Positions 3,187-30,816 are shown, numbered from the stretch's first letter. The stretch: 64,000 nt of DNA from Verrucomicrobiota bacterium (GCA_050874585.1 JBNMKZ010000001.1:49257-113256), one strand, 5' to 3'. A program made the numbers and translations. The notes: generated from the sequence alone by a model not told the origin.

Positions 3187-3423
3187 TTAGCCCTCGACAA
3201 TCGTGACGACCTTGCCGTCCTTGATGAACTTCACCTTGCCGTCCTTAAGGGCGAAGAGGGTGAAATCACGGCCCTGGCCGACGTTCTTGCCGGGGTGGAT
3301 CTTCGTGCCGCGCTGGCGAACGATGATCGAACCGACGGTGAGCTTCTGCCCGTCATAGGCCTTGACACCGAGGTACTTCGGATTGGAATCGCGACCGTTA
3401 CGCGCTGATGCGGATGTTGCCAT
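3187..3423 (-). CDS. rpmA: 50S ribosomal protein L27
   Basis: [49 protein letters not shown]... is canonical L27. Confidence 0.97.
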
Positions 3424-3435
3424 TTCGATTCCTCC

Positions 3436-3750
3436 TTAGGCGATTGCCTTGACCGTTGCCACGGTGATGGACTGACGATGACCAACCAGACGACGCGAAC
3501 CTTTCCGGCGCTTCGCCTTGAAGTTGAGAACCTTCTTGCCGCGCTTGACACCATCAACGGTCAGCGTGACCTTGGCACCCTCCACATAGGGGGCTCCGAC
3601 CTTCAGGGTCGTCCCGTCGGAAACGGCGCAAACCGTATCCAGAACGGCATCCTGACCCGCCTCGACCGCGATCTTTTCAATCTCGATCTTATCACCGACG
3701 TGAACAAGCGTCTGCTTGCCGCCGGTCTCGAGAACAGCGTATGCTTCCAT
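3436..3750 (-). CDS. rplU: 50S ribosomal protein L21
   Basis: MEAYAVLETGGKQTLVHVGDKIEIEKI...RRKGSRRLVGHRQS is canonical L21, upstream of rpmA as usual. Confidence 0.96.
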   Translation of the reverse strand: MEAYAVLETGGKQTLVHVGDKIEIEKIAVEAGQDAVLDTVCAVSDGTTLKVGAPYVEGAKVTLTVDGVKRGKKVLNFKAKRRKGSRRLVGHRQSITVATVKAIA

Positions 3751-3815
3751 TTTCTAACCTTTTCTTTCCGTCTTCCTTGTGGAGACCCATTCCCCACGAA
3801 AGACTGGAAGCGTAT

Positions 3816-3845
3816 AGTATATCTGATTTCGTCCCAAACTGTCAA
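3816..3845 (-). promoter_or_regulatory. Candidate sigma-70 promoter for rplU-rpmA
   Basis: Minus strand reads TTGACA (3845-3840), 18 nt, TATACT (3821-3816). About 65 nt upstream of the rplU ATG. Confidence 0.5.
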
Positions 3846-3902
3846 TCCCCCCCCACCCACCCACGAACTGGAGGAAGGGGATTGCGCACTTAAAGTACAG
3901 AG

Positions 3903-4575: not shown

Positions 4576-5889
4576 TCAGCCAATGACAAGTTCCTCACTC
4601 GGATAGCGCACCCGGCTGTGCGATTCCCTGTCGCCAATCATCATGACGACCGTCAATGCGCCCAGTCGCCCAATCAGCATCGCCACCATGATGACGCACT
4701 TCCCCGCTGTCGAAAGCCGCGCCGTCGTATCGCCCATCGACAGTCCCGTCGTCGTAATTGCCGAGACCGCCTCGAAGAAAAGCGCATCGGATGCAATGCC
4801 CGAATCGCCCTCCGTCACAAGCAGCGCACCAATCACGCAGACAGTCAGCGCAATCAGGGCCATGAAAATGACGAGCGCCTCACGAACAATGTCAGTCGGG
4901 ACGACGCGGCGATAGACCACCGTCTCCGATTCGCCGCGACACATGGCCAGCAGCGTGTAAATCAAGACCGCCAATGTCGTCACCTTGATGCCAGCAGCGG
5001 CCGAACCGGGCGCACCTCCAATGAACATCAGGTTCGCGTAGATGAGCCGCGTCAAGGGACTCAAGTCCTCCGTCGGCACCACGCAAAATCCGCAAGTCCG
5101 CGGCGTCACCGCCTGGTAGAAGCCGACCCAAAGCTTTTCGCCCAGAGCAAAGCCCTTCAAGGCCCCATTCCATTCCAAGGCAAGAAAGACCCCAAAGGCA
5201 ATCAACAGCAAGTAAAGGGACATCCGCAGGACAACCTTCGTGTGCAAGGTCAGCCGCCCCCGCCCACCGGACGTCCGCCGCAGGAACTTGAATGTGCACA
5301 GATTGTAGATAACAAGAAAGCCGATGCCACCGAGAATGGCTTCCACCGCCAGCGTCAGGATGACGAATGGATCGGACGCAAAACAGGCAATCGAATCAGT
5401 CCGCAAGCCGAACCCGGCGTTGCAGAAACTCATAATGGAATAGTAGATGCTTTGGTAGACATCATGCAGGCTAAAGTAGAGGGCCACCGCACCAGCCGTC
5501 TCAATCACGAGCATCGAGCCGACAACCCAGCAAATCAGGCCTCGAAGCCCCTGAACTTCAGCAACACCGTAGGCGTTCATCAGCGAGAACTCACGCGTCA
5601 GCGAAAGCCGCCGTCCAACGGCAATCATCAGGAACGTGCCGAAAGTCATCAGCCCAAGACATCCGACCTCAGCCAGCACCAACAGAACAATCTGCCCAAC
5701 TCGCGAATACTCAAGCGCAATGTCGACCGAGCAAAGCCCCGTCACGCAGACCGCCGAACACGAGGTAAAGAGCGCCGTCATCGGGTCGCCCCACGTGTGT
5801 GCGACACGCGCCCACGGACTGCATAGCAAAATCGCGCCGACAAGAATCAGCGCGACAAAACCGAGGGCAACCGAACAGCGGTTCCTCAC
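4576..5889 (-). CDS. TrkH/KtrB-family potassium transporter membrane subunit
   Basis: Four pore-loop-like repeats (CVTGL, CNAGFG, GGAPGSAAAGIKVTT, TTTGLS) in a polytopic protein. Track ORF runs to 5916 (TTG). GTG at 5887-5889 gives a GTGA overlap with the tatC stop and is the preferred start. Confidence 0.85.
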   Translation of the reverse strand: MRNRCSVALGFVALILVGAILLCSPWARVAHTWGDPMTALFTSCSAVCVTGLCSVDIALEYSRVGQIVLLVLAEVGCLGLMTFGTFLMIAVGRRLSLTREFSLMNAYGVAEVQGLRGLICWVVGSMLVIETAGAVALYFSLHDVYQSIYYSIMSFCNAGFGLRTDSIACFASDPFVILTLAVEAILGGIGFLVIYNLCTFKFLRRTSGGRGRLTLHTKVVLRMSLYLLLIAFGVFLALEWNGALKGFALGEKLWVGFYQAVTPRTCGFCVVPTEDLSPLTRLIYANLMFIGGAPGSAAAGIKVTTLAVLIYTLLAMCRGESETVVYRRVVPTDIVREALVIFMALIALTVCVIGALLVTEGDSGIASDALFFEAVSAITTTGLSMGDTTARLSTAGKCVIMVAMLIGRLGALTVVMMIGDRESHSRVRYPSEELVIG

Positions 5890-6948: not shown

Positions 6949-7524
6949 TTACTTCGCCTGGTAGATGACGAACTCACCGCGGCGGTTCTTCGCCCACGCC
7001 GATTCGTCATGACCCTCAACGGCCGGACGCTCCTCGCCGTTGCTCCGCGTCTGAATGCGGTCGGGCGAGATGCCGTTCTGCACCAAATAGCCGCGCAGGA
7101 TAATCGCACGGTTTTCACCAAGGGACATGTTGTACTCGTTGGAGCCGCGCTCGTCGCAGTTGCCCTCAATGACAACCACGCGGTCGGTCTTCTCGGAGAG
7201 GTGCTGCGTCACCGCGTCAATTTTCGAAATCTCGCCCGAGGGGACGACCGTCGAGTCAAAGCCGAAATAGACAGGCTCGAAGGCAACGTCCGTGCACTTT
7301 GCGTAGATGTCCTCAAAGCGGCGCTCACCCGCGTCGGAAATGGAACCGGACTGCGCCTGCGAAATCGCATCGTCGTCGCTCGTCGAAATATCCGACACCT
7401 GGGCAGAATCGTCAGCCCCCGCACCAGCGCCGCCCGCGCCCTTGCTCGCCTTGTCATACTTGCATCCCGTCGTCGCGAATGCGAGCGAAACAGCCAAAAC
7501 TGCCATAACTGTCGTGAACTTCAT
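6949..7524 (-). CDS. pal: Peptidoglycan-associated lipoprotein (Pal/OmpA-family)
   Basis: Lipobox LAFATTGC; OmpA-like C-terminal domain (FDSTVV..., NCDERGSNEYNMSLGENRA, NRRGEFVIY). AAGGAG RBS upstream. Confidence 0.9.
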   Translation of the reverse strand: MKFTTVMAVLAVSLAFATTGCKYDKASKGAGGAGAGADDSAQVSDISTSDDDAISQAQSGSISDAGERRFEDIYAKCTDVAFEPVYFGFDSTVVPSGEISKIDAVTQHLSEKTDRVVVIEGNCDERGSNEYNMSLGENRAIILRGYLVQNGISPDRIQTRSNGEERPAVEGHDESAWAKNRRGEFVIYQAK

Positions 7525-8045: not shown

Positions 8046-8081
8046 TTGAAGAACAAGAAAATCATTAGAAGGAAGATTAGT

Positions 8082-8807
8082 ATGTCAGAAGTAAAAACAA
8101 CAAAGGCTGAAATAGCCTATAAAACAATCGTCCGCAAGGACCCCATAACAAATAAACCCGTTAACTGCGCACTCGTCGAAAGTGGACGCAAGGTCTCAAT
8201 CAGCCAGATTTTGGAGGAGGTGTCCGGCAACGGCCACGGAATCGGCAAAACCTCGGCGTTCCTGGGCATCTACCAGTCAATCCTGTCAGCTACCCTTGAG
8301 CACCTCATCGCTGGTGACTGTGTGACGCTGGATGGATTCGCACGCATCCACTGCACAGTCCGTGGCACCCTTGACCAGTCTGGAACAATCTCAAAGGAAA
8401 GGAACTCCCTGCACACGGTCATCCAGCCACTCGGGAAATTCAGATTCAAGATTGAAGACTTCACCTGGCGGAATGCCAACGCGGCAGAGAGGAGAATTCG
8501 CATGACCTCCGTTCTCTCCTGCGTAGCAGGCGCACAAAACGGACAAATCACAAAGGGGAAGGACATCCGCATCTATGGCGGCAATCTTGACTTGGCAACG
8601 GAAATTGTGCTGACATGGACTGCAGACGGGGAGGAGTCCTCAACGACAATACGGGTGAGCGACGCAGAGTCGGGCACCCTCCGACTCCCATGGCCAGCTG
8701 CACTAGACGAAGTCACCGCAGGAACCGCCATCACATTCACGGTCACTGTTGGAGAGGGTGCATCCACGCAGATGGTCAGCCGCACGGCTACACTCATGGA
8801 GGCGTAA
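8082..8807 (+). CDS. Hypothetical protein: HU/IHF-like DNA-binding fold fused to a beta-rich (Ig-like) C-terminal domain
   Basis: ATG 8082 follows the GAAGGAAG RBS. Residues ISQILEEVSG...LGIYQSILSATLEHLIAGDCVTLDGFARIHCTVRG resemble the HU helix-helix-beta-arm core. The C-terminal half is beta-strand-like (IRIYGGNLDLATEIVLTWT...ITFTVTV). Lower GC than neighbours. Only plus-strand gene in this neighbourhood. Confidence 0.55.
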   Translation: MSEVKTTKAEIAYKTIVRKDPITNKPVNCALVESGRKVSISQILEEVSGNGHGIGKTSAFLGIYQSILSATLEHLIAGDCVTLDGFARIHCTVRGTLDQSGTISKERNSLHTVIQPLGKFRFKIEDFTWRNANAAERRIRMTSVLSCVAGAQNGQITKGKDIRIYGGNLDLATEIVLTWTADGEESSTTIRVSDAESGTLRLPWPAALDEVTAGTAITFTVTVGEGASTQMVSRTATLMEA

Positions 8808-9152: not shown

Positions 9153-9947
9153 TCAGGAGCGCGGCGGCGGCACAGGCGGGAAAATCCCGTCCCGCACCTC
9201 CGCGACATACGCCGCGAATGCCGTGCGCACGGTCTCGGAAAGATTCGCATAGCGCTTGGCGAAGGAAGGCGAACGCTCGCTCAACCCGAGGAGGTCATGC
9301 ATCACCAACCACTGCGCATCACAGACCGGACCCGCACCAATGCCAATCGTCGTAATGGAAAGCGCGGACGTAATGGCCGCCGCGAGTTCGGCCGGAATGC
9401 ACTCCAACGTGACGGCAAAGGCCCCCGCCGCCTGCACGGCATGCGCATCCGCCAAAATCCGTTCGGCCTCCTCTCGCGTCTTGCCCTGCTTGCGAAAGCC
9501 ACCGTACTCATTGACGCTTTGCGGGGTCATCCCGATGTGGGCGACAACGGGGATGCCCGCCTCGCACATCCGCCGAATCAGTCCCGTCACCCGTGCACCG
9601 CCCTCAAGCTTGACGGCATCCGCGCCAGCCTTGAGACAGGCAACGGCATTGCGCATCGCCTCATCATCACCGCACTGGTAACTGCCGAACGGCAGGTCGC
9701 CGACAACCATTGCATCCTTCACGGCCCGCGAAACCGCCGCGACAGCCGAAAGCGTCTCCTCCATCCGCACGGGTATCGTCGTCTCGTAGCCAAGCGTCGT
9801 CATTCCCATGGAATCACCAACGAGAATGATTGGCACGCCCGCCTCATCGGCCAAGCGTGCGAAGCACGCGTCATACGCCGTGCAGCACCCCAGCTTCTCA
9901 TGCCCTTTTGCCGCCCGAACAGTCGCCACATTCCACTTCTTCATCAC
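9153..9947 (-). CDS. panB: 3-methyl-2-oxobutanoate hydroxymethyltransferase (ketopantoate hydroxymethyltransferase)
   Basis: LGCCTAYDACFARLADEAGVPIILVGDSMGMTTLGYETT...GADAVKLEGG is canonical PanB. ATG at 9942-9944 is the likely true start (track start 9947 is GTG). Confidence 0.94.
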   Translation of the reverse strand: MMKKWNVATVRAAKGHEKLGCCTAYDACFARLADEAGVPIILVGDSMGMTTLGYETTIPVRMEETLSAVAAVSRAVKDAMVVGDLPFGSYQCGDDEAMRNAVACLKAGADAVKLEGGARVTGLIRRMCEAGIPVVAHIGMTPQSVNEYGGFRKQGKTREEAERILADAHAVQAAGAFAVTLECIPAELAAAITSALSITTIGIGAGPVCDAQWLVMHDLLGLSERSPSFAKRYANLSETVRTAFAAYVAEVRDGIFPPVPPPRS

Positions 9948-12574: not shown

Positions 12575-13190
12575 GGCTTTCGTGTCCCACGGTTGTTTAC
12601 CACTGAATGCACTGAAACTGCCTTCGTCAGACACTGAAGGACACCGAAGCCTTGCGTTCTCCCTGCGGGGCTGACACGAAAGGCCACCAAAACCGGCGAA
12701 GCCGGACACGAAAAACCTTCAGTGAATTTCAGTGTCGGCCGATAGGCCGATTCAGTGCATTCAGTGGCAAAAAACAAGCACCACCCTCCCCCGTGGTTGT
12801 TTACCACTGAAAGCGAAACTGCCTTCGGCAGACACTGAAGGTCACCGAAGCCTTGCGTTCTCCCTGCGGGGCTGACACGAAAGGCCACCAAAACCGGCGA
12901 AGCCGGACACGAAAAACCTTCCGTCTGTTCCGTGGTTGACCGACCTCACCTTCAGTGAATTTCAGTGTCGGTCGCCAGTCCGGTTCAGTGTGTTCAGTGG
13001 CAGAAAAGAGCACCACCCTCCCCAGCTTTCGTGTCCCGAAGGGTTTTCGCGGCATTTCGTGTTCGGCCGCAGGCCATTCAACCCTCCCCGCGGGACACAC
13101 GAGAAGGCACGAAAGCTGCCTGACGACGGACACAAAACCGCCGCGCGCCCTTCCGTGAATTTCAGTGTCGGTCGCCAGGCTTGCATGGTA
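12575..13190. repeat. Three degenerate tandem units (~200-230 bp) of a GC-rich interspersed repeat family (modules X and Y)
   Basis: Module X is 70/70 identical at 12650-12719 and 12851-12920 (CCTTGCGTTCTCCCTGCGGGGCTGACACGAAAGGCCACCAAAACCGGCGAAGCCGGACACGAAAAACCTT). Module Y (GAATTTCAGTGTCGG...TTCAGTG..TTCAGTGGCA) lies at 12723-12777, 12957-13008 and 13157-13179. A further X-Y copy lies at 29631-29766. Confidence 0.9.
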
Positions 13191-22582: not shown

Positions 22583-24025
22583 ATGAACAGACGGGAATTT
22601 ATCGCTGGGGCAACGAGCCTCGGTCTACTTGGGGCAGGACGCATTCTGGCCGAGAACGAACATCCGCCACGCCTTCGATTCGGCGTCATTTCGGACATTC
22701 ACCTGAAGGATGCGCCCAGTCGGGCGAAATACGCACGCGCCCTGCGTTGGTTTGATGCACACAAGGCGGATGCCGTCCTTTGCTGCGGCGATCTGACGGA
22801 TTGGGGAATTGCCCACCAGCTGAAGATGGTTGCGGAGGGCTGGCGCACGGTCTTCCCCGACAATCGGCGGAGTGATGGACAGCCCATTGAACGGCTCTTT
22901 CTCTACGGCGACCACGACACGGGAGGCTACGCCCATCACCACTTTGGCAGCTTTGAGGCCGCCCAACAAATGTACGACTTCACAGCCGAGGAAGTCGAGG
23001 CAATGGCCATCCGTCAGTCCGGTGCGGCCCGCCGATGGGAGGAAGCCTTCGGCGAACCCTACGAACCGATTTTCGTGAAAGACGTCAAGGACTACCGCTT
23101 CGTTTTGGCCAATTTCACGATGGACGGCGGCGCGGCAAATCCGCACGGCAACAATACGCCCGGTGCAGAAGAGCGCCTGGCATCCCTGACCCTCGACCCG
23201 ACCAAGCCGTTCTTCTACGCCCAGCACCGCGTCTACCGCAACACGATGGGCGGACCCGAAATGTCCGGTCTTGACGACGGTCGCTCGACAGCCCTCCTCA
23301 GCCAGTTCCCAAACTGCATCGCCTTCTGCGGACACGCCCATCGCACCCTGACGGACGAGAAGATGATTTGGCAGGGTTCGTTCGCGGCAGTTGAAGCCCC
23401 CTCCCTCGCCTACGTCACACAGGCCAATGGACGCGAGAACGCCCGCGCAATTGATTATGTCCGCGCCCGTCAGGGTGTCACGCCCCTGCTGCCAACCTAT
23501 CCGATGACCGTCCCTGAACAGGGCCTGCTCGTCTCGGTCTGGGACGACCACATTGTCTTCGAGCGCATGGACTTCCGCCGCGAAGCGAGGCTCGGCCCGG
23601 CGTGGGAGATGCCCCTCGGCAAAAACGCCGCGAAGCCCTACGATGACAAGTGCCGCGCAGACGAGACACCCGCACCACGCTTCCCCGCCGATGCACAGGC
23701 AACCGTGACGCGCCTCTCGGCCGAGAACCGTGCACGGGAACCAATCGACCAGTACCGCGTGACCTTCCCGGCGGCCCGTTCGACGACCGAAACGCCGCGC
23801 GCCTTCGACTACGAGGTCCTGGCCTTCGTCAACGGTGGCACCTCGCCCTTCCTGAGACGACTCGTCTATTCCGACCGATGCGCCTGCCCGGAGGATGCGG
23901 AGACGATTCCCGTCGCCTGCCCATTTGCCGTCGACGAATTCCCCGCCCATGCCCGGCTAAGATTCGAGGTGCGCGCCCGCAACGCCTTCGGGACGCGCAG
24001 CACGCCCCTGGAGGCAACCCCATGA
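22583..24025 (+). CDS. Calcineurin-like metallophosphoesterase with twin-arginine signal peptide
   Basis: MNRREFIAGATSLGLLGAGRILA (RR motif). Phosphoesterase motifs GVISDIHL, CCGDLTDWG, YGDHD, FCGHAH. Confidence 0.82.
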   Translation: MNRREFIAGATSLGLLGAGRILAENEHPPRLRFGVISDIHLKDAPSRAKYARALRWFDAHKADAVLCCGDLTDWGIAHQLKMVAEGWRTVFPDNRRSDGQPIERLFLYGDHDTGGYAHHHFGSFEAAQQMYDFTAEEVEAMAIRQSGAARRWEEAFGEPYEPIFVKDVKDYRFVLANFTMDGGAANPHGNNTPGAEERLASLTLDPTKPFFYAQHRVYRNTMGGPEMSGLDDGRSTALLSQFPNCIAFCGHAHRTLTDEKMIWQGSFAAVEAPSLAYVTQANGRENARAIDYVRARQGVTPLLPTYPMTVPEQGLLVSVWDDHIVFERMDFRREARLGPAWEMPLGKNAAKPYDDKCRADETPAPRFPADAQATVTRLSAENRAREPIDQYRVTFPAARSTTETPRAFDYEVLAFVNGGTSPFLRRLVYSDRCACPEDAETIPVACPFAVDEFPAHARLRFEVRARNAFGTRSTPLEATP

Positions 24026-25581
24026 ATCGGACAATCGCAGCCTTCCTTTTTGCCGCGCTCGGACTGATGACGGGCTGTACGCAAGTTTCGAACGACCGCA
24101 CCTGCACGGTAAACGAACAGCCTGCCACACGATGGCGGGGCTTCAATCTGCTCGAAATGTTCGTCTGGCCGACGAACGATCCAACGCCAGCCTACCGCGA
24201 ATGGGACTTCCAGAAGATTCGCGAATGGGGGTTCAACTTCGTCCGACTGCCGATCGACTACCGGTACTTCACCCACGGAAAGGACTGGAACATCCTCGAC
24301 GAAGAACGACTGAAGGTCGTGGACCGCGCCATTGAACTGGGCGAAAAGTACGATATCCACGTCCAAATCTGCCTTCACCGTGCACCCGGCTACTGCGTCA
24401 ATCCGACGGGAACGGAACCGGCCGACCTCTTCAGCGACGCGGAAGCCCAGAAGGTCTTCGCCCGCTACTGGGGAACATTCGCCCGCCGGTGGAAGAAATG
24501 GCCCAACCGCCGCGTCTCCTTCGATCTTGTCAACGAACCTCCCAAGATTTCCGAGGAAAAATATGTCGCGGCAATCCGCCCGGCGATCGCGGCAATTCGA
24601 GAGGTGGATCCCGACCGACTCATCTTCTCCGATGGGCGCGACGGAGGGAACCTGCCGACCTTCTCCCTCGCAGGTGAGCGCGGCATTGCACAGGCCATGC
24701 GCGGCTACAAGCCCATGTCCGTCTCGCATTTCGGCGCACCCTGGTGCGCGGGACTGACGACATCCCTGCCCCCCATTTGGCCACTGGACCCGTTTGCGCC
24801 CGAAGGCATTCTTGCAGGTGTCGGCAAGGCCAAGTTGCGTAGCCCACTCGTCATCGAGGATGTCCCCCCCTGCACCCTTTCGCTTCACTTCGGCGGTGTC
24901 AGCGAAAAAGTGACCGTCCGCGTCACGGGCGACGGGACGAAACTGGCGGACTTCACCTTTCGTCCGAAGAAGGGCGATCCGCTTTGGCGCTCCGTCGCAG
25001 TGCATCCAAAATGGAAGATTCTGCAGGGCGATTACATGGGCGTTGAGACCACACGGGTTGAGCGCGCCGTCAAGCGTCTTGAGATCTGTCTCACCAACGG
25101 TGACTGGTGTCACCTCACGGGCGTGCGGTTCACGACAGACGACGGTCGAACGGCCCTGCTGCGCATTTCGCCGCGCTTCGCCCCGGCGCGGCACTTCACC
25201 CAACGCTTCGCCGGATTCGACGCGCCTTATCCCTTCGTCCCCACAGAGACCAACGCGACTTCCGCACGCGCCCTTCCACAGAAAGAAGGCCTCCGCTGGC
25301 TTGAGGAGAACAACTTCAAGACCTGGGACCAGTTCGCCGAGCGGGGCGGATTCGTGATGATGGGCGAATTCGGGGCGTTTCGCAACTGCCCGCACGACAT
25401 CGCCCTCGCCTGGATGGAGGATAACCTGCGCCTCCTGAAGAAACGCAACTGGGGCTGGGCACTCTGGAACTTGCGCGGCACATTCGGCATTCTCGACTCC
25501 AACCGAAAGGATGTCGACTACGAAGCCTGCGAAGGACACCTGCTGGACCGCCAGATGCTCAACCTTCTCCAGGCATACTAA
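24022..25581 (+). CDS. Glycoside hydrolase family 5 (cellulase/mannanase-like) lipoprotein
   Basis: ATGA overlap with the upstream stop. Lipobox LGLMTGC. RGFNLLEM..., GFNFVRLPIDY, acid/base FDLVNEP, nucleophile MMGEFGA. Confidence 0.82.
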   Translation: MNRTIAAFLFAALGLMTGCTQVSNDRTCTVNEQPATRWRGFNLLEMFVWPTNDPTPAYREWDFQKIREWGFNFVRLPIDYRYFTHGKDWNILDEERLKVVDRAIELGEKYDIHVQICLHRAPGYCVNPTGTEPADLFSDAEAQKVFARYWGTFARRWKKWPNRRVSFDLVNEPPKISEEKYVAAIRPAIAAIREVDPDRLIFSDGRDGGNLPTFSLAGERGIAQAMRGYKPMSVSHFGAPWCAGLTTSLPPIWPLDPFAPEGILAGVGKAKLRSPLVIEDVPPCTLSLHFGGVSEKVTVRVTGDGTKLADFTFRPKKGDPLWRSVAVHPKWKILQGDYMGVETTRVERAVKRLEICLTNGDWCHLTGVRFTTDDGRTALLRISPRFAPARHFTQRFAGFDAPYPFVPTETNATSARALPQKEGLRWLEENNFKTWDQFAERGGFVMMGEFGAFRNCPHDIALAWMEDNLRLLKKRNWGWALWNLRGTFGILDSNRKDVDYEACEGHLLDRQMLNLLQAY

Positions 25582-25583
25582 GC

Positions 25584-27179
25584 ATGAAACGACTCCCCTT
25601 CCTTCTCACTTTGCTCTGCGCCGGACTCGTCCAGGCGATGGACTTCATTCCCCTCGACCGCCCAAAATCCGTTCTGGTCGATGGCCGCCCCGGAAAAGAC
25701 CGCCTGGAATACCAGTCAGATGGAACACTCATTTTGAAAGGCGGCACGGCGTCCTGCGTCCAGCTCGCCTGGGAATGCGAATTCAAAACGCGGACAAGCG
25801 TCCTTGGCGGAATGTGGGAACGAACCTACGGTGACAGTGCCTGGCGGAGGATAGAATCGACAAATGTGCCGCGAGATGGGTTTATGGCATGGTATGTCCT
25901 CGTATCCGATGGCAGTCGCACGGACGGCTACGGCATCAAGGTTCAGCCCAATGCCTTCGCCAGTTGGCGGGTTTATCCGAACCGCCTCGAACTCTTCCTC
26001 GATGTCAGGGCGGGAACGCATCCCGTTGAACTCGGCACCCGCTCACTCGCCCTTTGCACACTTGTCTCGCGGCAGGGGCACGATAAGGAGTCCGCCTTTG
26101 CCGCCGGACGCGCATTCTGCCGCCTCATGTGCCCAACGCCGCGCCTGCCCGCCGCACCCGTCTATGGCTACAACGACTGGTACTGCGCCTACGGCAATAA
26201 CACGGCAACCAACTTTCTCGCCGACGTCAAGTTCCTCGTCGAGACCATGGACGCACAGCCCGGCGACCCCGTCACAAACCGCCCGTTCGCCATCGTGGAC
26301 GACGGCTGGCAGAATGCGATTCGCCATGGCGGCGACCCGCTGAAGCGCGGCGGGCAGTGGGGTTCGGTCAATCCACGATGGGGACTGCCAATGGCAGAGG
26401 TCGCACACCGCATCAAGACGATGAAGGCGCGGCCCGGTCTCTGGTACCGTCCGTTCGAGCCGGACGAAGGAGAGGTCAAACTGCCGATTGACCCGACCGA
26501 CCCAAAGTGGAAACGGCGGATCCGCGAGGACCTTGCACGGTTTGCCGACTGGGGCATGGAACTCGTCAAGATTGACTTCATCACCTATGACTGGAACGTC
26601 ACCTGGGGCTATGAGCTGACCGCCACGCCTTTCGGAAAGCCCCTCGCCCCCTGGCGTGATCGGACACGAACAAGTGCCGAGGTGATTCGCGACCTTTACC
26701 AGACCATGCGGGATGCGGCTGGCGATCGACTGCTCATTATCGGCTGCAATGCCATTGACCATTTTGCCGCAGGACTCTTCGAACTCCAGCGCACGGGTGA
26801 CGATACGAGCGGACGCGAATGGGCGCGAACACGCAAGATGGGACCGAACACGCTTGGTATGCGCGCCATCCACAACGGCATCTTCTATCTCAATGACGGC
26901 GATTGCGTCGGACTTGTGAACGAGGGTGACATTCCCTGGCAGAAGAACCGCCAGTGGCTTGACCTCGTCTCCCACAGTGGGACGGCACTGTTCACAAGTT
27001 GGAAACGCAGTCTTGTGACACCCGACATTGCCCGTGAACTTGGCCGCGCCTGGCGAACCGCCGCGCACTGTACGACGACTGGCGAACCGCTGGACTGGCG
27101 CTCAACGCCGCGTCCACGGCGCTGGCTTTTTGGCGAAAACTGCCGCGCCACCTACGATTGGGACAGTTCAAACGACTGA
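25584..27179 (+). CDS. Clan GH-D (GH27/GH36-like, alpha-galactosidase-type) glycoside hydrolase
   Basis: Signal peptide MKRLPFLLTLLCAGLVQA. YGYNDWY, IVDDGWQ, LVKIDFITYDW (candidate nucleophile region), LQRTGDDTSG (candidate acid/base region). Confidence 0.6.
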   Translation: MKRLPFLLTLLCAGLVQAMDFIPLDRPKSVLVDGRPGKDRLEYQSDGTLILKGGTASCVQLAWECEFKTRTSVLGGMWERTYGDSAWRRIESTNVPRDGFMAWYVLVSDGSRTDGYGIKVQPNAFASWRVYPNRLELFLDVRAGTHPVELGTRSLALCTLVSRQGHDKESAFAAGRAFCRLMCPTPRLPAAPVYGYNDWYCAYGNNTATNFLADVKFLVETMDAQPGDPVTNRPFAIVDDGWQNAIRHGGDPLKRGGQWGSVNPRWGLPMAEVAHRIKTMKARPGLWYRPFEPDEGEVKLPIDPTDPKWKRRIREDLARFADWGMELVKIDFITYDWNVTWGYELTATPFGKPLAPWRDRTRTSAEVIRDLYQTMRDAAGDRLLIIGCNAIDHFAAGLFELQRTGDDTSGREWARTRKMGPNTLGMRAIHNGIFYLNDGDCVGLVNEGDIPWQKNRQWLDLVSHSGTALFTSWKRSLVTPDIARELGRAWRTAAHCTTTGEPLDWRSTPRPRRWLFGENCRATYDWDSSND

Positions 27180-27197
27180 GGTTGAGAATCGGGCGCG

Positions 27198-27291
27198 GCA
27201 AAACCGCCTGCTCGTGGGCTTGCGCGGCCTGCCGTTGCCCGTCGGCTCGCGGTGCCCACGGGTCTTGCCGGTCTGCCGTCCGGCAGGCCAT
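27198..27291. repeat. Left-flank composite repeat of the 27.2-29.8 kb island
   Basis: GCAAAACCGCCTGCTCGTGGGCTTGCGCGGC (27198-27228) matches 29217-29247 at 30/31. CTGCCGTCCGGCAGGCCAT (27273-27291, contains palindrome CTGCCG-TC-CGGCAG) is identical to 29477-29495. Confidence 0.85.
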
Positions 27292-27364
27292 TCAGTCCCC
27301 TTCCTACCACCCTTACCTTCAGCCTCTCCCCCGCTCTGCAACCTCTGCGGCTGAAAACCACCCT

Positions 27365-27736
27365 CCCCTTTCCGCGCTTTCCGCGTGTTCCGCGCCCCTC
27401 CCCAAACTCGGCGGACAAACTTTCGATCTCGACGGAAAAACTTATCAACATTTCCCGCGAGTTTCCCCTTCTCCCTTCCACTAACCGACCGAAAGCCGCC
27501 ATCCGCCTCCCCTTTCCCGCGCTTTCCGCGTGTTCCGCCCCGTCCCCAAAACTCGGCGGACAAACTTTCAATCTCGGCGGAAGAACTTATCAACATCTCC
27601 CGCGAGTTTCCCCTTCTCCCTTCCGCTAACCGACCGAACGCCGCAATCCGCCGCCCCTTTCCCGCGCTTTCCGCGTATTCCGCGCCCCTCCCAAAACTCG
27701 GCGGACAAACTTTCAATCTCGGCGGAAGAACTTATC
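27365..27736. repeat. Tandem repeat, 2.6 copies of a ~145-bp unit
   Basis: Units at 27365-27508, 27509-27653 and 27654-27736 (truncated), about 90% identical by eye. Each begins CCCCTTTCC(C)GCGCTTTCCGCGTGTTCCGC and contains ACTCGGCGGACAAACTTTC.ATCTCG.CGGAA.AACTTATC. Confidence 0.9.
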
Positions 27737-27909
27737 TCGCCGGACGGAACGGCCCGTCAATCCCGCGAGTTGCCGCGAGGCCCAGTTCCGCAAGGCCCCC
27801 GCGCACCCCGCGAAATCCCCTCCCCCGTAAATCCCGCGAGGGGGGCGATACTGTCCGCCGCGCCGACGGGGGCGGTCCCCGCACGGCGGAAACGAAAGGA
27901 ACGACGAAC

Positions 27910-28122
27910 ATGAAGACGAAAGCCATGAGACGCGCGAAGGGCGGGAGCGGGATCGCCCGCATCCTGCGGCCCTCGAACTACACGCACGGCGCCCCGCGCC
28001 AGTGGACGCCCGCCCGCCGCGAGGCCTGGCGCACGGGACTCGCGCTCCTCCGCGCCGGCGAGCCGCTCGACCGCGTCCTCGCACGGGCCCGCGCCATCCT
28101 CCGCGAGGGGGGTGCGCGATGA
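27910..28122 (+). CDS. Hypothetical small basic protein (70 aa), island ORF1
   Basis: ATG preceded by the GAAAGGAAC RBS. Near-saturated G/C at third codon positions in this frame. ATGA overlap with ORF2. Confidence 0.6.
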   Translation: MKTKAMRRAKGGSGIARILRPSNYTHGAPRQWTPARREAWRTGLALLRAGEPLDRVLARARAILREGGAR

Positions 28123-28523
28123 GCGGCCCCACCCCGCAGCCGACCTCCCCCTCGCGTGTGCGCACGTGCGCCCGCGTTCTGAAGGGTGAAGGGTTAAGTA
28201 ATAATAATACTGGGGAGCCTCTCAGAACGCGCGTGCGCGTACGCGAGGGATTCTACGGCCCGGCCATCGCCCGCGACACCGACGCCGCGGTCGACTACGC
28301 CCTGCAGGCGACGCGCAACGACCCGCGCTATCGCGCCGCCTGGTGCTTCTACTGCCTGCACCTCGGCGTGAACACCTTCCTCGACCAGCTCGACGCGGTC
28401 CTCTCCTGCCACGCGCAGGGCGAGATCCTCGACCCCGCCCGCGCCTTCCACGCGCGGCTCCGCCAGATGGCCGACAGGACGCTCGGGCGCATCCGCACGG
28501 ACGGGAAGGGAGGTGCGCGATGA
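28119..28523 (+). CDS. Hypothetical protein (134 aa), island ORF2
   Basis: Very high GC3 in frame (GAC ACC GAC GCC GCG GTC GAC TAC GCC CTG...). ATGA overlaps at both ends. Contains an anomalous A/T run at 28194-28211. Confidence 0.6.
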   Translation: MSGPTPQPTSPSRVRTCARVLKGEGLSNNNTGEPLRTRVRVREGFYGPAIARDTDAAVDYALQATRNDPRYRAAWCFYCLHLGVNTFLDQLDAVLSCHAQGEILDPARAFHARLRQMADRTLGRIRTDGKGGAR

Positions 28524-28900
28524 GCAGCCGAAACGACCGGCTCAACGACGCGATGCTGCCGCTCGGGGCCGCCGGCGACCCGGATCGGTCCGCCGCCTTC
28601 TCCGACCGGGGCGCGGGCGCCGCGCACATCCGCCGCGCCCCCGACGGCGACGCGCACGACCGCCGCGAAAGCGCGGACCGGCGCCGCGCACGGCTCACCG
28701 GCCAGGCCATGCTCCTGCTGCTGCTCACCGGCAGGGGCTGGCTCTGCACCACCCTCGGCCTCGTCGCCGAGAACGGGCGCGACAGACGCTCGTCCATCCG
28801 CGAACTCGCCGGGAACGGCGGGGACGTGCGGACGGCCCGCCGCCGCTATGAGAGGCAGCGAGACTCCCTCCTCGCATTCTTCTCGGGCGGCGCAGATTAG
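28520..28900 (+). CDS. Hypothetical protein (126 aa), island ORF3
   Basis: Very high GC3 in frame; starts within the repeated junction GGTGCGCGATGAGC. Has a hydrophobic/HTH-like core LTGQAMLLLLLTGRGWLCTTLGLVAENGRDRRSSIRELA. Confidence 0.55.
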   Translation: MSSRNDRLNDAMLPLGAAGDPDRSAAFSDRGAGAAHIRRAPDGDAHDRRESADRRRARLTGQAMLLLLLTGRGWLCTTLGLVAENGRDRRSSIRELAGNGGDVRTARRRYERQRDSLLAFFSGGAD

Positions 28901-29003
28901 GCCAACCACGGACCACACGGAAGGCACGGAATGGGCTTTCGCGATTTCTCCTGGCCGCAAAGTGCGCAAAGAGACCAAAGACATTTGAGACTCCGAACTC
29001 TAT

Positions 29004-29075
29004 CTCTGCGACCTCTGCGGCCTCTGCGGCCAAGAACCACCCTCCACATTTCCGTGTGCTCCGCGTGTTCCGTGG
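29004..29075. repeat. Right-flank copy of island repeat modules
   Basis: CTCTGCGACCTCTGCGGCCTCTGCGGCCAAGAACCACCCTCC plus TTTCCGTGTGCTCCGCGTGTTCCGTGG parallels 27334-27392 (CTCTGCAACCTCTGCGGCTGAAAACCACCCTCC plus TTTCCGCGCTTTCCGCGTGTTCCGCG). Confidence 0.75.
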
Positions 29076-29216
29076 TTCAAATCAAAAACCGATGTCGCAT
29101 CTGTGTGCCTATATATATGGGGGGCATCGATGCGAGGCCCCCGACGAACTCAAACCCAACAACCCAGAACGACAGACAAGAGAAAGGAACAACGAACATG
29201 AAGAACCCGAAACTCA

Positions 29217-29495
29217 GCAAAACCGCCTGCTCGGGGGCTTGCGCGGCGGCTCGCCCGACCCGGATGCGGCGACGGTCTCGCAACGCCTCTCGCGCCTCGA
29301 CAAGCAGCTTCGCTGAGCCTGCCCTGCCTCGGCGACTATCACTGGCTGCGGACAAAGCAACTCCTACGGCTGCGAGCCGCACCGCACCTCTCGTGCGACC
29401 GCCGCGCTCACCCCCTCGCCCGAGAGGAAAGCCAGGCCGGCCACAGGCGGGACGCGGCAGAATGGTTTTGCCGCGCCTGCCGTCCGGCAGGCCAT
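29217..29495. repeat. Right-flank copies of the 31-nt and 19-nt island-bracketing repeats
   Basis: 29217-29247 and 29477-29495 match 27198-27228 and 27273-27291. They are 230 nt apart here versus 44 nt on the left. Confidence 0.85.
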
Positions 29496-29630
29496 CCAAA
29501 GTGCCGCGACAGGGCCTTTCACAACACTCGCGCAGCGAGTCCCACCTGCAACCCGGGCGGGCGCAAGTTGCGTCCCGCCCGCGTCCAAGTTAGGCCGCGG
29601 CACCCGGGAAGTTGAAACAACCACGGACAG

Positions 29631-29766
29631 CCTTGCGCCCTCCCTGCGGGGCCGGACACGAAAGGCCACCAAAACCGGCGAAGCCGGATACGAAACCGCC
29701 GCGCCCTTCCGTCGATTTCAGTGTCGGCCGATAGGCCGGTTCTGTGCATTCAGTGGCAAAAAACAA
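29631..29766. repeat. Dispersed copy of repeat modules X and Y (same family as 12.6-13.2 kb)
   Basis: X at 29631-29695 (about 88% match by eye to 12650-12714). Y at 29714-29766 (GATTTCAGTGTCGGCCGATAGGCCGGTTCTGTGCATTCAGTGGCAAAAAACAA). Confidence 0.88.
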
Positions 29767-29830
29767 ACCGAAACACCAACGAAAGGAAACACAACACATG
29801 AAACTCAGCAAGACCGAATCCGCCGCGACC

Positions 29831-29935
29831 TCAGTCCTCGCTATCGTCACCCTTGTCCACAACCCTGCCAAAAATGAACATTCCCAGCACAATTGCGACC
29901 GATACAACAAGAATCCAAACTACCTTCGCCGTCAT
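29831..29935 (-). CDS. Candidate 34-aa single-TM peptide coupled to the anti-sigma gene
   Basis: Below the ORF-track cut-off. The ATG directly abuts the anti-sigma stop (TAAATG). Hand translation: MTAKVVWILVVSVAIVLGMFIFGRVVDKGDDSED. Confidence 0.35.
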   Translation of the reverse strand: MTAKVVWILVVSVAIVLGMFIFGRVVDKGDDSED

Positions 29936-30280
29936 TTAGTCACGCTCCTTCCGCCGATTCACACGAAAACACTCCCGAAAGAACCCCAGCAACATCCACC
30001 CGGAGACGCTGTCCCGATCACCATTCGCCGCGTCCTGCGCGGCAATCAGCGACGTCTCGCCCAAGCCACTCACGCGTTCCGACCGGCCCGAGAGGCCGAC
30101 GGCGAGGATGCATCCAACCGAAAGAAGGGCCAGAACCGCCATGACCTTCGCACGGAAGACTCGCCGTGCGCGGCGAATCGAACCGACAAGCCGTTCTTCC
30201 ATTCCCGAAGGCAACTGGGTCGCCCCAACGCTCCTTCGTACCTTATTCGTAAGAATCGAATCGATTTCACTCTCGTTCAT
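29936..30280 (-). CDS. Putative anti-sigma factor (single-pass membrane protein)
   Basis: ATGA overlap with the ECF sigma stop. Short cytoplasmic N-terminus, one TM (VMAVLALLSVGCILAVGL), short C-terminal part. Confidence 0.6.
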   Translation of the reverse strand: MNESEIDSILTNKVRRSVGATQLPSGMEERLVGSIRRARRVFRAKVMAVLALLSVGCILAVGLSGRSERVSGLGETSLIAAQDAANGDRDSVSGWMLLGFFRECFRVNRRKERD

Positions 30281-30816
30281 GCACTCACCATCTCCTCTTT
30301 CTTTGACAGCCGCGCATAAAGCGCCGCTCGGGCATTGTAAAGGCGTGATTTGACCGTCCCCTCCGAGAGGTTCAGGATGCGGGCGATTTCTCCGATGGAC
30401 AGGTCCTCAAAATAGCGCAAGACCACCACCTCCCGCAACGGTTCCGAAATGCCGCGAACGGCCGCCCGAACGGCATCCGAATCGCACGACTCCAGAACCG
30501 CCATGACGCTCGGTGAGCACATCTCGGGCAGGTCGCACGGAGCACCAACTGGGATGACCTCGGCCTTCCGCTTGCGAAGGTCCATCCGCCGAAAGTTCAG
30601 CATAATCACATAGAGCCAACTGAAGAAATCGGACTTCGGCTGATAAAGCCCAATCTTCTTGATGGCCTGGTCAAATGACTTGTAGACAAGCTCCTCCGCA
30701 TCCGAGTCGTTCGGGCAAAGCAAAACCGCCGCGGCGAAAAGGCGGTTCCCGTACTCGGAAACGAGCCTCTTCGCCCCGCGTTCCCTGTCTTCTCTAATCG
30801 CCTGCCAGACTTCCAT
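30277..30816 (-). CDS. ECF-type RNA polymerase sigma-70 family factor
   Basis: Region 2 (DAEELVYKSFDQAIKKI...FFSWLYVIMLNFRRMDLRK) and region 4 HTH (LREVVVLRYFEDLSIGEIARILNLSEGTVKSRLYNARAAL). Confidence 0.9.
   Translation of the reverse strand: MEVWQAIREDRERGAKRLVSEYGNRLFAAAVLLCPNDSDAEELVYKSFDQAIKKIGLYQPKSDFFSWLYVIMLNFRRMDLRKRKAEVIPVGAPCDLPEMCSPSVMAVLESCDSDAVRAAVRGISEPLREVVVLRYFEDLSIGEIARILNLSEGTVKSRLYNARAALYARLSKKEEMVSA

Follow-up and report, generated by a model that had tools for sequence, protein, structure and literature searches.

A coupled gene pair with a hairpin, and in many relatives a box, inside the coding sequence of its first gene, from a truncated copy of an orphan operon

Translational operators, such as those of MS2 coat/replicase, T4 gene 32, and the ribosomal-protein operons, combine a stable hairpin near a start codon with small proteins of the same operon and tight coupling. 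Replication origins can reside inside initiator genes, as does the lambda ori in O, the pT181 origin in repC, and the phiX174 origin in gene A. The lambda N/nut system, a textbook analogy in layout, places a short linear box a few nucleotides ahead of a hairpin (boxB, 15 nt) at the 5′ end of an operon. Here, we describe a box and a hairpin associated with ORF2, the second of three overlapping open reading frames (ORFs) that occupy positions 27910–28900 of a 64,000-nt stretch of DNA from a Verrucomicrobiota bacterium (GCA_050874585.1 JBNMKZ010000001.1:49257-113256). The whole stretch is referred to as the window, and ORF1–ORF3 together with the genes that follow them at related loci as the cassette.

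The cassette shares traits with each of these systems and departs from each. It has the box, the short spacing, the hairpin at the 5′ end of the operon, and a first protein with an Arg-rich disordered N-terminus, all reminiscent of N/nut, but its stem comprises 19–28 bp within a hairpin of ~100 nt, lies inside coding sequence, and is not accompanied by detectable internal terminators. An inverted repeat with an A/T-rich center and repeated boxes inside the first gene of the unit recalls the initiator-gene origins, yet the cassette has no initiator, nickase, or helicase domain and no conserved catalytic Tyr or HUH motif, and both box and 5′ arm are dispensable in some lineages. The stable hairpin near a start codon, the small proteins of the same operon, and the tight coupling resemble the translational operators, whereas the stem, known here from sequence, is far longer, lies 10–45 codons into the gene, and has no recognizable RNA-binding domain beside it. 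We class the cassette among small accessory operons that carry a leader-type control element; the families that make it up are unclassified.

The box and the hairpin are under nucleotide-level constraint within the 5′ coding part of ORF2, and the cassette genes encode no recognizable enzyme. The core of the locus contains the following features, in window coordinates:

27894–27916, + strand: ribosome-binding site (RBS) and start codon of ORF1, a 96%-identical copy of the initiation region 29182–29204 of a truncated ~50-aa gene
27910–28122, + strand: ORF1, 70 aa, Arg-rich
28106–28128, + strand: ORF1/ORF2 junction GGGGGTGCGCGATGAGC, a 91%-identical copy of the ORF2/ORF3 junction
28119–28523, + strand: ORF2, 134 aa, the conserved core gene of the cassette
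28149–28249, + strand: hairpin, ORF2 codons 11–44, with 5′ arm 28149–28182, loop 28183–28221, and 3′ arm 28222–28249
28260–28499, + strand: four-helix domain of ORF2, with CFYCL, G.NTF.DQL, and PA.AFHARL invariant in close homologues
28507–28529, + strand: ORF2/ORF3 junction, comprising a GGAGG Shine–Dalgarno sequence, a spacer, and the ATGA overlap
28520–28900, + strand: ORF3, 126 aa

An initial annotation of the window had placed three ORFs at these positions on this strand, with ATGA overlaps at both the ORF1/ORF2 and the ORF2/ORF3 junction, and all of this was borne out. The hairpin has two arms of ~30 nt each. Its stem is long and G+C-rich, its internal loop is rich in purines, and its A/T-rich apical stem-loop is formed by the A/T run TTAAGTAATAATAATACT (28194–28211) within the loop. 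The annotation had correctly noticed this run but read it as a secondary insertion or an internal −10-like element; it is instead the in-frame apex of the hairpin, which 12 of 13 loci possess. Depending on how much flanking sequence is taken in, the window hairpin folds at −56 to −67 kcal/mol. Equivalent hairpins of 84–121 nt occupy the same place in 12 of the 13 loci with DNA, while L022 lacks the 5′ arm, and a covariance model locates a single hairpin in each cassette and no other in the window or the loci.

Pairing is preserved while the nucleotides change. The inner helix of 10 bp aligns in register, with 93% of cells paired and three of its ten pairs altered in both partners; for one pair, six loci have A-U, three G-C, and three U-A, and its changes alter the encoded residues jointly (D/V/G with S/T/P). 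None of 500 shuffles reached the observed covariation score, slid controls were 18–52% paired, and RNAalifold yields a 19-bp consensus helix with five compensated pairs. As Arg and Ala codons are inherently self-complementary, we recoded the hairpins with synonymous codons (300 recodings per hairpin): the native sequence is more stable in 12/12 loci, clearly in 10/12 (z −1.8 to −3.9). Further, the sense strand folds better than the antisense strand by 5–14 kcal/mol in nine of 12 loci, and G.U cells number 20 vs 8 A.C cells, a strand asymmetry that leans toward RNA or a sense single-strand form. The hairpin is translated, since a Shine–Dalgarno sequence and an ATG lie upstream of it and the ORF2 frame runs open through it in all 12 loci.

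In each arm, ~19 nt are perfectly alternating pyrimidine–purine (CG/TG/CA steps), a type of tract that can adopt a left-handed (Z) helix. The loops of the window, L004, L016, and L018 contain (T)AGTAATAC, one mismatch from what we take to be the circovirus/nanovirus nick-site motif TAGTATTAC; the motif is not universal, and the loop measures 35–45 nt. Several known hairpin elements were considered and ruled out. An intrinsic terminator or attenuator does not fit, as no U-tract is conserved behind the stem: close relatives have just UUUCU there, and L020, L021, and L023 have no such tail. An integron attC site is contradicted by the hairpin ends, which read CCCTCGCG ... CGCGAGGG instead of RYYYAAC ... 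GTTRRRY, and by the position of the element inside a gene; no locus contains an integrase. Lack of a reverse transcriptase or integrase, together with a 35–45-nt loop too short to invert, rules out a retron or invertible segment. An Rfam scan of window positions 27000–30300, run in E-value mode, gave only a chance match (Giardia RNase MRP, E = 4.4), located elsewhere in that region.

The second component is a 12-nt box, (A)AAGTTATCAACA, which in the DNA of L016, L019, L020, and L023 ends 0–3 nt before the hairpin. Its nucleotides read as KLST in 14 proteins, KVIN in six, and SYQQ in one, and L022 has two copies of the box, 19 nt apart, in non-coding sequence; P0037 and P0020 carry two boxes each. 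Because the box is kept across three reading frames, selection acts on the nucleotides and not on the peptide, and KLST as a conserved N-terminal peptide is ruled out. About half of the loci have no box. In the window, the box-like AACTTATCAACA (11/12 match) occurs at 27439–27450 and 27584–27595, within units 1 and 2 of a tandem repeat upstream of ORF1, and TTATCAACA occurs twice in the 64 kb where 0.1 is expected, both times in these two units. TTATCAACA matches eight of nine positions of TTATCCACA, which we take to be the textbook DnaA box, a consensus that may not be that of the source lineage. Literature searches for the box, and for mobile elements of the Kiritimatiellota (the probable source lineage), yielded nothing relevant.

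The ORF2–ORF3 pair is conserved and translationally coupled. The ORF2 family is real but rare: a collection of 5.8 billion proteins contains 21 homologues of 47–67% identity, and a set of 1.84 billion proteins yields 63 cluster representatives at E ≤ 0.001. Across 185,579 species-representative genomes (GTDB), ORF2 has a single match, in a Kiritimatiellota metagenome-assembled genome (MAG; locus L006), and all other family copies are on metagenome contigs. A tblastn search with ORF2 against 50,697 phage and 72,556 plasmid records gave no match, and scans of IMG/VR and of JGI metagenomes no relatives. For ORF3, one homologue was found by word index. Of nine further distinct loci whose sequence reaches far enough downstream, eight nevertheless have an ORF3-type gene behind ORF2, with an ATGA overlap in seven of the eight (L004 is the exception). 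These ORF3 copies match one another in BLASTP at E 1e-4 to 1e-27 (six loci) and share the N-terminus MS.RN(D/E)RFN as well as a common C-terminal pattern. In contigs L001, L020, and L021, the pair occurs with different or no further cassette genes. The homologues of ORF2 and the retention of an ORF3-type gene behind it confirm the earlier view that the frames are real.

The junctions explain one peculiarity of the ORF2 protein. As the initial annotation had pointed out, the same 14-mer, GGTGCGCGATGAGC, occurs at 28111–28124 and again at 28512–28525; the repeat around it extends to 23 nt with 91% identity (28106–28128 vs 28507–28529). This shared 14-mer is the Shine–Dalgarno sequence, spacer, and ATGA of the downstream gene, and it is kept family-wide at the ORF2/ORF3 junction. 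The 3′ end of ORF2 reads ...GGAGG(T)GCGnnA-TGA in 11 of 13 loci, with the GGAGG positioned 7–8 nt before the ORF3 ATG and within the last ORF2 codons. Thus, the embedded Shine–Dalgarno sequence accounts for the family-wide ...GGAR/GGAK C-terminus of ORF2, and its location inside the ORF2 end supports translational coupling of the two genes.

AlphaFold predicts residues 1–44 of ORF2 to be disordered, with seven Arg in residues 13–42, and residues 48–127 to form four helices (predicted local distance difference test, pLDDT, 84–90); residues 42–121 of ORF3 (28643–28882) are likewise predicted as four helices (pLDDT ~90). In agreement with the initial annotation, in which no family had been recognized, ORF1–ORF3 gave only noise against Pfam-A, NCBIfam, PHROGs, and PADLOC (Cas9-BH, E = 1.2), and the other cassette genes likewise had no match among curated families. 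PADLOC matched none of ten cassette proteins, which gives no membership in a toxin–antitoxin or defence system; defence genes occur only as cassette neighbors, in L006 and L001. Structure and profile searches with predicted models, suggested earlier as a way to place the proteins, were run on ORF2 and ORF3 and found neither a family nor a fold. With a Foldseek match defined as E ≤ 0.001 to the confident part of a model, none was obtained for ORF2 (best PDB E 2.2, best BFVD E 0.44) or ORF3 (best PDB E 3.6).

A profile search against PDB sequences returned nothing for ORF2 and, as best match for ORF3, 3o60_A ("Lin0861 protein", E = 0.86), which we take to be a putative TetR-type helix-turn-helix protein. 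By eye, the ORF3 C-terminus, S.xEL....(K/R)xTYFxxRxxLLxFF, resembles a helix-turn-helix recognition region of the sigma-70 region 4 or TetR type, but half of the ORF3 family lacks the ten residues where the turn would fall. Pfam helix-turn-helix and sigma models matched none of nine ORF3 members, and we do not claim a helix-turn-helix in this C-terminus. A sigma factor, formed by ORF3 or split between ORF2 and ORF3, is ruled out by the absence of any Sigma70 model at E ≤ 10 and of any sigma structure in Foldseek; a comparable profile search gives 5e-16 for the genuine ECF sigma factor nearby (30277–30816). Three distant homologues of 206–218 aa (P0026, P0031, and P0033) contain two tandem copies of the ORF2 helical domain, suggesting that this domain works as a dimer. 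Natural in-frame deletions join the N-terminal part of ORF2 that the hairpin encodes to the ORF3 C-terminus in P0054 and P0078, and to later cassette genes in P0075.

ORF2–ORF3 is the head of a longer, one-directional orphan operon. In L007, L013, L018, and L004, further genes lie behind the pair on its strand: one of ~50 aa, one of ~70 aa (or 166 aa), a small one that is lipoprotein-like, and one of 125–241 aa. The ~50-aa, ~70-aa, and terminal genes constitute BLAST families across these four loci, while the lipoprotein-like gene gave no BLASTP match between loci. Terminator-like sites at 3364–3391 and 6171–6188 of L004 bracket the run from ORF2 to the terminal gene. The three-gene module first proposed for the window therefore does not stand as a self-contained unit: ORF1 is confined to near-identical copies, and ORF2–ORF3 leads a longer operon. 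Co-occurrence of the three families elsewhere holds for ORF2 with ORF3 and fails for ORF1.

From its sequence, the terminal cassette gene (L007 7925–8650) may weakly resemble HU DNA-binding proteins. It is 24.7% identical to the window gene 8046–8807 (253 aa), which has a sub-threshold match to HU-DNA_bdg (PF14848; E 6.8e-5, 23.3 bits vs a cut-off of 30), an HU-like DNA-binding domain described from Bacteroidetes; the terminal cassette gene itself, however, matches nothing in Pfam or NCBIfam. A second cassette near 8046–8807 is ruled out, as this gene stands alone with no other cassette gene near. Its neighbors are ORF 6949–7524 (Pal/OmpA-like by eye) and ORF 9153–9947 (panB-like by eye).

The window contains a recently acquired, truncated, and rearranged copy of this orphan operon. 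The lipoprotein-like and HU-like genes are absent, and the two genes expected directly behind ORF3 are reduced to remnants. The features around the core are:

24025–25578: GH5 cellulase, left flank
27192–27294, + strand: repeat "A", short copy, similar to a miniature inverted-repeat transposable element, with mutually complementary ends and an internal CTGCCGTCCGGCAGG hairpin
27358–27792, + strand: three tandem 145-nt repeats upstream of ORF1, with 100%, 88%, and 63% identity, the third degenerate
28904–29077: inverted repeat downstream of ORF3, arms 28904–28931 and 29050–29077, 28 nt, 82% complementary
29108–29218, + strand: remnant of the ~50-aa gene, upstream region and first seven codons (ATG 29198, MKNPKLS)
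29217–29498, + strand: repeat "A", long copy, in direct orientation relative to 27192–27294
29766–29827, + strand: remnant of the ~70-aa gene, RBS and first ten codons (ATG 29799, MKLSKTESAA), 97% identical to L007, then diverging
30277–30816, − strand: ECF sigma factor, right flank

Positions 27227–28783 match L007 and L009 at 95–96% identity, while the flanks of these two loci (a thioredoxin-domain gene and PdxS/PdxT) are not found in the window. Within ORF3, identity to L007 ends at 28783, and from 28784 on the C-terminal variant of L013 follows, whereas the ORF3 C-terminus of L007 is the variant seen in L001 and L018. ORF3 is thus recombinant but intact. Downstream, the 111 nt of 29108–29218 are 100% identical to L007 before repeat "A" takes over, and the other intergenic pieces behind ORF3 are shuffled relative to L007. 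An independent sample (L012) contains a sequence 100% identical over 1541 nt. Between the window and L007, non-synonymous and synonymous changes number 2:1 in ORF1, 3:4 in ORF2 (per-site ratio, pN/pS, ~0.3), and 6:1 in ORF3, counts too small to be informative. The ORF2–ORF3 core may still be functional here despite the loss of the downstream genes.

Base composition agrees with acquisition from outside. GC content at codon positions 1/2/3 is 0.72/0.66/0.90 in ORF1, 0.67/0.56/0.86 in ORF2, and 0.74/0.59/0.91 in ORF3, and all three frames show the usual pattern of position 1 exceeding position 2. The very high third-position GC reported earlier for these frames is therefore confirmed, at 0.86–0.91 vs 0.70–0.75 in four neighboring genes; local GC is 0.73–0.77 vs 0.59 over the entire window. 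In L007, third-position GC is 0.85–0.94 in all cassette genes vs 0.73–0.85 in the adjoining genes, and in other genomes cassette GC is closer to local GC than in L007. The composition is foreign and fits recent acquisition from a higher-GC relative; together with the 95%-identical copy in another genomic context, it upholds the higher-GC donor that had been proposed.

How the box and hairpin act is a matter for graded judgment. The explanation we favor, and hold tentatively, is that they could be an operon control site read by the operon's own small protein, i.e., autogenous control. The transcript would form the hairpin shortly after the ORF2 start codon, ORF2 or ORF3 would bind the hairpin RNA, or the box on DNA, and binding would set the translation or stability of the coupled ORF2–ORF3 message. 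The candidate binder would be ORF2, via the Arg-rich disordered N-terminal tail that the stem itself encodes.

Several observations weigh against this explanation. No box lies near the window hairpin, where it is present only in the tandem repeats ~560 nt upstream, and neither ORF2 nor ORF3 has a recognizable nucleic-acid-binding fold (none in Foldseek; the hint for ORF3 has E = 0.86). Synonymous recodings still fold at −30 to −53 kcal/mol, so that much of the stem stability comes from Arg/Ala codons, and codon choice, not an RNA function, could be what makes the sense strand fold better than the antisense strand. In L022, the 5′ arm is gone but the peptide remains, and the encoded peptide may therefore matter on its own. 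The 6:1 changes in ORF3 are compatible with relaxed constraint, although the numbers are too small to interpret. Finally, template switching has been documented to homogenize the arms of inverted repeats within coding sequence, and the compensatory changes could have arisen in this way rather than by selection (PMC8604942).

Some of these points recur in the alternative that only the proteins matter, which we consider unlikely. The palindrome would then be a by-product of two Arg/Ala-rich segments written in CGN/GCG codons, its arms kept symmetric by template switching or gene conversion, and ORF2 and ORF3 would be small regulatory or structural proteins of an accessory operon with a functionless nucleic-acid structure. 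The stability of the recodings, the peptide retained in L022, the frame that is always open through the hairpin, and the precedent for arm homogenization (PMC8604942) all suit it. It does not account for native hairpins that clearly beat their recodings in 10/12 loci, nor for an adjacent box kept as nucleotides in three frames and at a non-coding position; a disordered peptide does not predict the joint residue change (D/V/G with S/T/P), and the loop folds into a further, apical stem with a sequence that varies from locus to locus. The main rival to autogenous control, hardly more probable and in our view likewise unlikely, is that box and hairpin are a replication, single-strand-initiation, or transfer origin inside its own initiator or accessory gene; on that view, the cassette would be a small integrative or mobilizable unit whose hairpin acts as single-stranded or cruciform DNA. 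TTATCAACA, presumably one mismatch from the DnaA box TTATCCACA, the iteration of boxes (L022, P0037, P0020, and tandem units 1 and 2 of the window), and the long alternating pyrimidine–purine arms around an A/T-rich center speak for such an origin, and the strand asymmetry also fits a single-stranded DNA form. The same cassette is found at two unrelated loci with 95% identity and no integrase nearby, and among its neighbors are an IS200-like Y1 transposase (L001) and an island with restriction–modification, RadC, Fic, and AbiEi genes (L006). However, domains of the Rep, HUH, primase, helicase, relaxase, and integrase kinds are absent from all cassette genes. No Y1_Tnp or Rep model of the HUH/IS200/IS605 type matched a cassette protein, the sole Y1_Tnp being the divergent neighbor in L001. 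Tyr78 of ORF2 is replaced in distant homologues, and the 50,697 phage records, 72,556 plasmid records, and IMG/VR hold no relative. Roughly half of the loci lack the box and L022 the 5′ arm, and recombination between the flanking "A" repeats can explain the relocation.

Two further alternatives appear less probable still. It is quite improbable that the window copy is a dead relic, i.e., a functionless fragment decaying after repeat-mediated loss of the rest of the operon. Two downstream genes cut to seven and ten codons, scrambled flanks, the 6:1 and 2:1 ratios of non-synonymous to synonymous changes in ORF3 and ORF1, and an ORF1 with no relatives beyond near-identical copies speak for decay; all three frames are nonetheless intact, the identical sequence recurs in an independent sample (L012, 100% over 1541 nt), and ORF2 has three non-synonymous vs four synonymous changes (pN/pS ~0.3). 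Moreover, the ORF3 C-terminus is an intact variant shared with L013 and not debris, and ORF2–ORF3 stands with different or no further cassette genes elsewhere (L001, L020, and L021). Very improbable, and drawn by analogy, is antitermination of the lambda N/nut type, in which the box and hairpin in nascent RNA and the Arg-rich tail of ORF2 would modify RNA polymerase for read-through into distal genes. The layout resembles boxA–spacer–boxB, with a box, a 0–3-nt spacer, and a hairpin at the 5′ end of the operon's first gene, and ORF2 supplies a disordered N-terminal segment with seven Arg in residues 13–42; this Arg-rich motif is not independent of the hairpin, because the stem encodes these very residues. 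Between the cassette genes of L007, L013, and L004, the + strand has no terminator-like sites above shuffled expectation, the hairpin has ~100 nt vs 15 nt for boxB and is translated, and neither sequence nor fold is similar to N-type proteins.

Besides autogenous control, which we continue to favor, a more specific reading seems doubtful: the box and the three-tier hairpin in the first 45 ORF2 codons might constitute an undescribed class of dual-coding cis-element. Similarly doubtful is that the same nucleotides both encode the Arg-rich peptide and fold into an RNA or single-stranded DNA recognized by this peptide or by ORF3. If so, ORF2–ORF3 would be a self-contained switch for the expression or propagation of accessory cassettes tied so far only to Kiritimatiellota.

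The proteins and the nucleic-acid element match nothing curated, while gene order and coupling signals are conserved in more than 12 independent metagenomic loci. Also new is a cis-element with nucleotide-level constraint inside coding sequence. To our knowledge, overlapping protein and structure codes of such length are rare in bacteria, and they are test cases for the evolution of dual constraints. If the element is a regulatory operator, it would provide a first handle on gene control in its source lineage, probably the Kiritimatiellota, a gut and rumen group with hardly any genetics that we know of. Were it an origin-like site instead, a new kind of small mobile unit would be defined. As the window cassette is truncated, functional work is better directed at a full copy such as L007, L013, or L004.

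ORF1 is best kept apart from the conserved module. Its relatives are near-identical copies of the same cassette only, and its initiation string and its junction with ORF2 are copied from cassette pieces, for which reasons it reads as a lineage-specific add-on built partly from copied cassette signals. As described initially, ORF1 carries the local consensus RBS, GAAAGGAAC at 27894–27902, which occurs five times in the window where 0.9 are expected. The 67-aa gene behind ORF2 in L020 does not align with ORF1. ORF1 may derive from a partial duplicate of ORF3. Residues 12–47 of ORF1 and 31–65 of ORF3 (27943–28050 vs 28610–28714) are 40–43% identical (E ~0.06–0.17 in a very small database); this and a match of ORF1 to ORF2 (E = 0.027 over 25 residues) are weak leads only.

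Repeats fill the surroundings of the cassette. Repeat "A" is dispersed and palindromic, with ends GGCGCGGCAAAACC / GGTTTTGCCGCGCC, and has copies at 3399–3864, 5023–5135, and 7412–7541 of L007. Two direct copies bracket the cassette both in the window and in L007; the short copy (27192–27294) marks the left edge of the segment in common with L007, and one copy truncates the ~50-aa gene. Repeat "A" may thus mediate rearrangement and relocation. The tandem repeats at 27358–27792 are shared with L007 and L009 only, and their units 1 and 2 hold two related motifs, GGCGGACAAACTTTCAATCTC and GGCGGAAGAACTTATCAACATCTC. A repeat "B" (29013–29072) overlaps the inverted repeat 28904–29077 and has a second copy at 27334–27392. 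An intergenic repeat family unrelated to the cassette genes is represented at 29629–29766 and by several copies at 12592–13180 (73–86% identity).

The cassette had been placed in a repeat-filled gap between a glycoside-hydrolase cluster and an ECF sigma operon. The repeats and the sigma gene are there, but the cluster amounts to a single GH5 gene, because the adjacent 531-aa ORF (25584–27179) has no Pfam match at E ≤ 0.001. At other loci, the neighborhood differs. In the Kiritimatiellota MAG (L006 11888–17725), an AbiEi-type gene comes after the cassette, along with a Dcm methylase and its NgoFVII-type endonuclease, RadC, and Fic, and GC of this island falls to 45–50% from ~13.3 kb. L001 (5258–7929) has an IS200-like Y1 transposase (338 aa) divergent from ORF2, as well as a zeta toxin and DUF3990. 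In L018 (877–1665), an inserted gene with 23S_rRNA_IVP and a Top1-type zinc ribbon separates ORF3 from the cassette gene that comes next, and in L004 (1323–2153) a NERD and zinc-ribbon gene lies upstream of the cassette.

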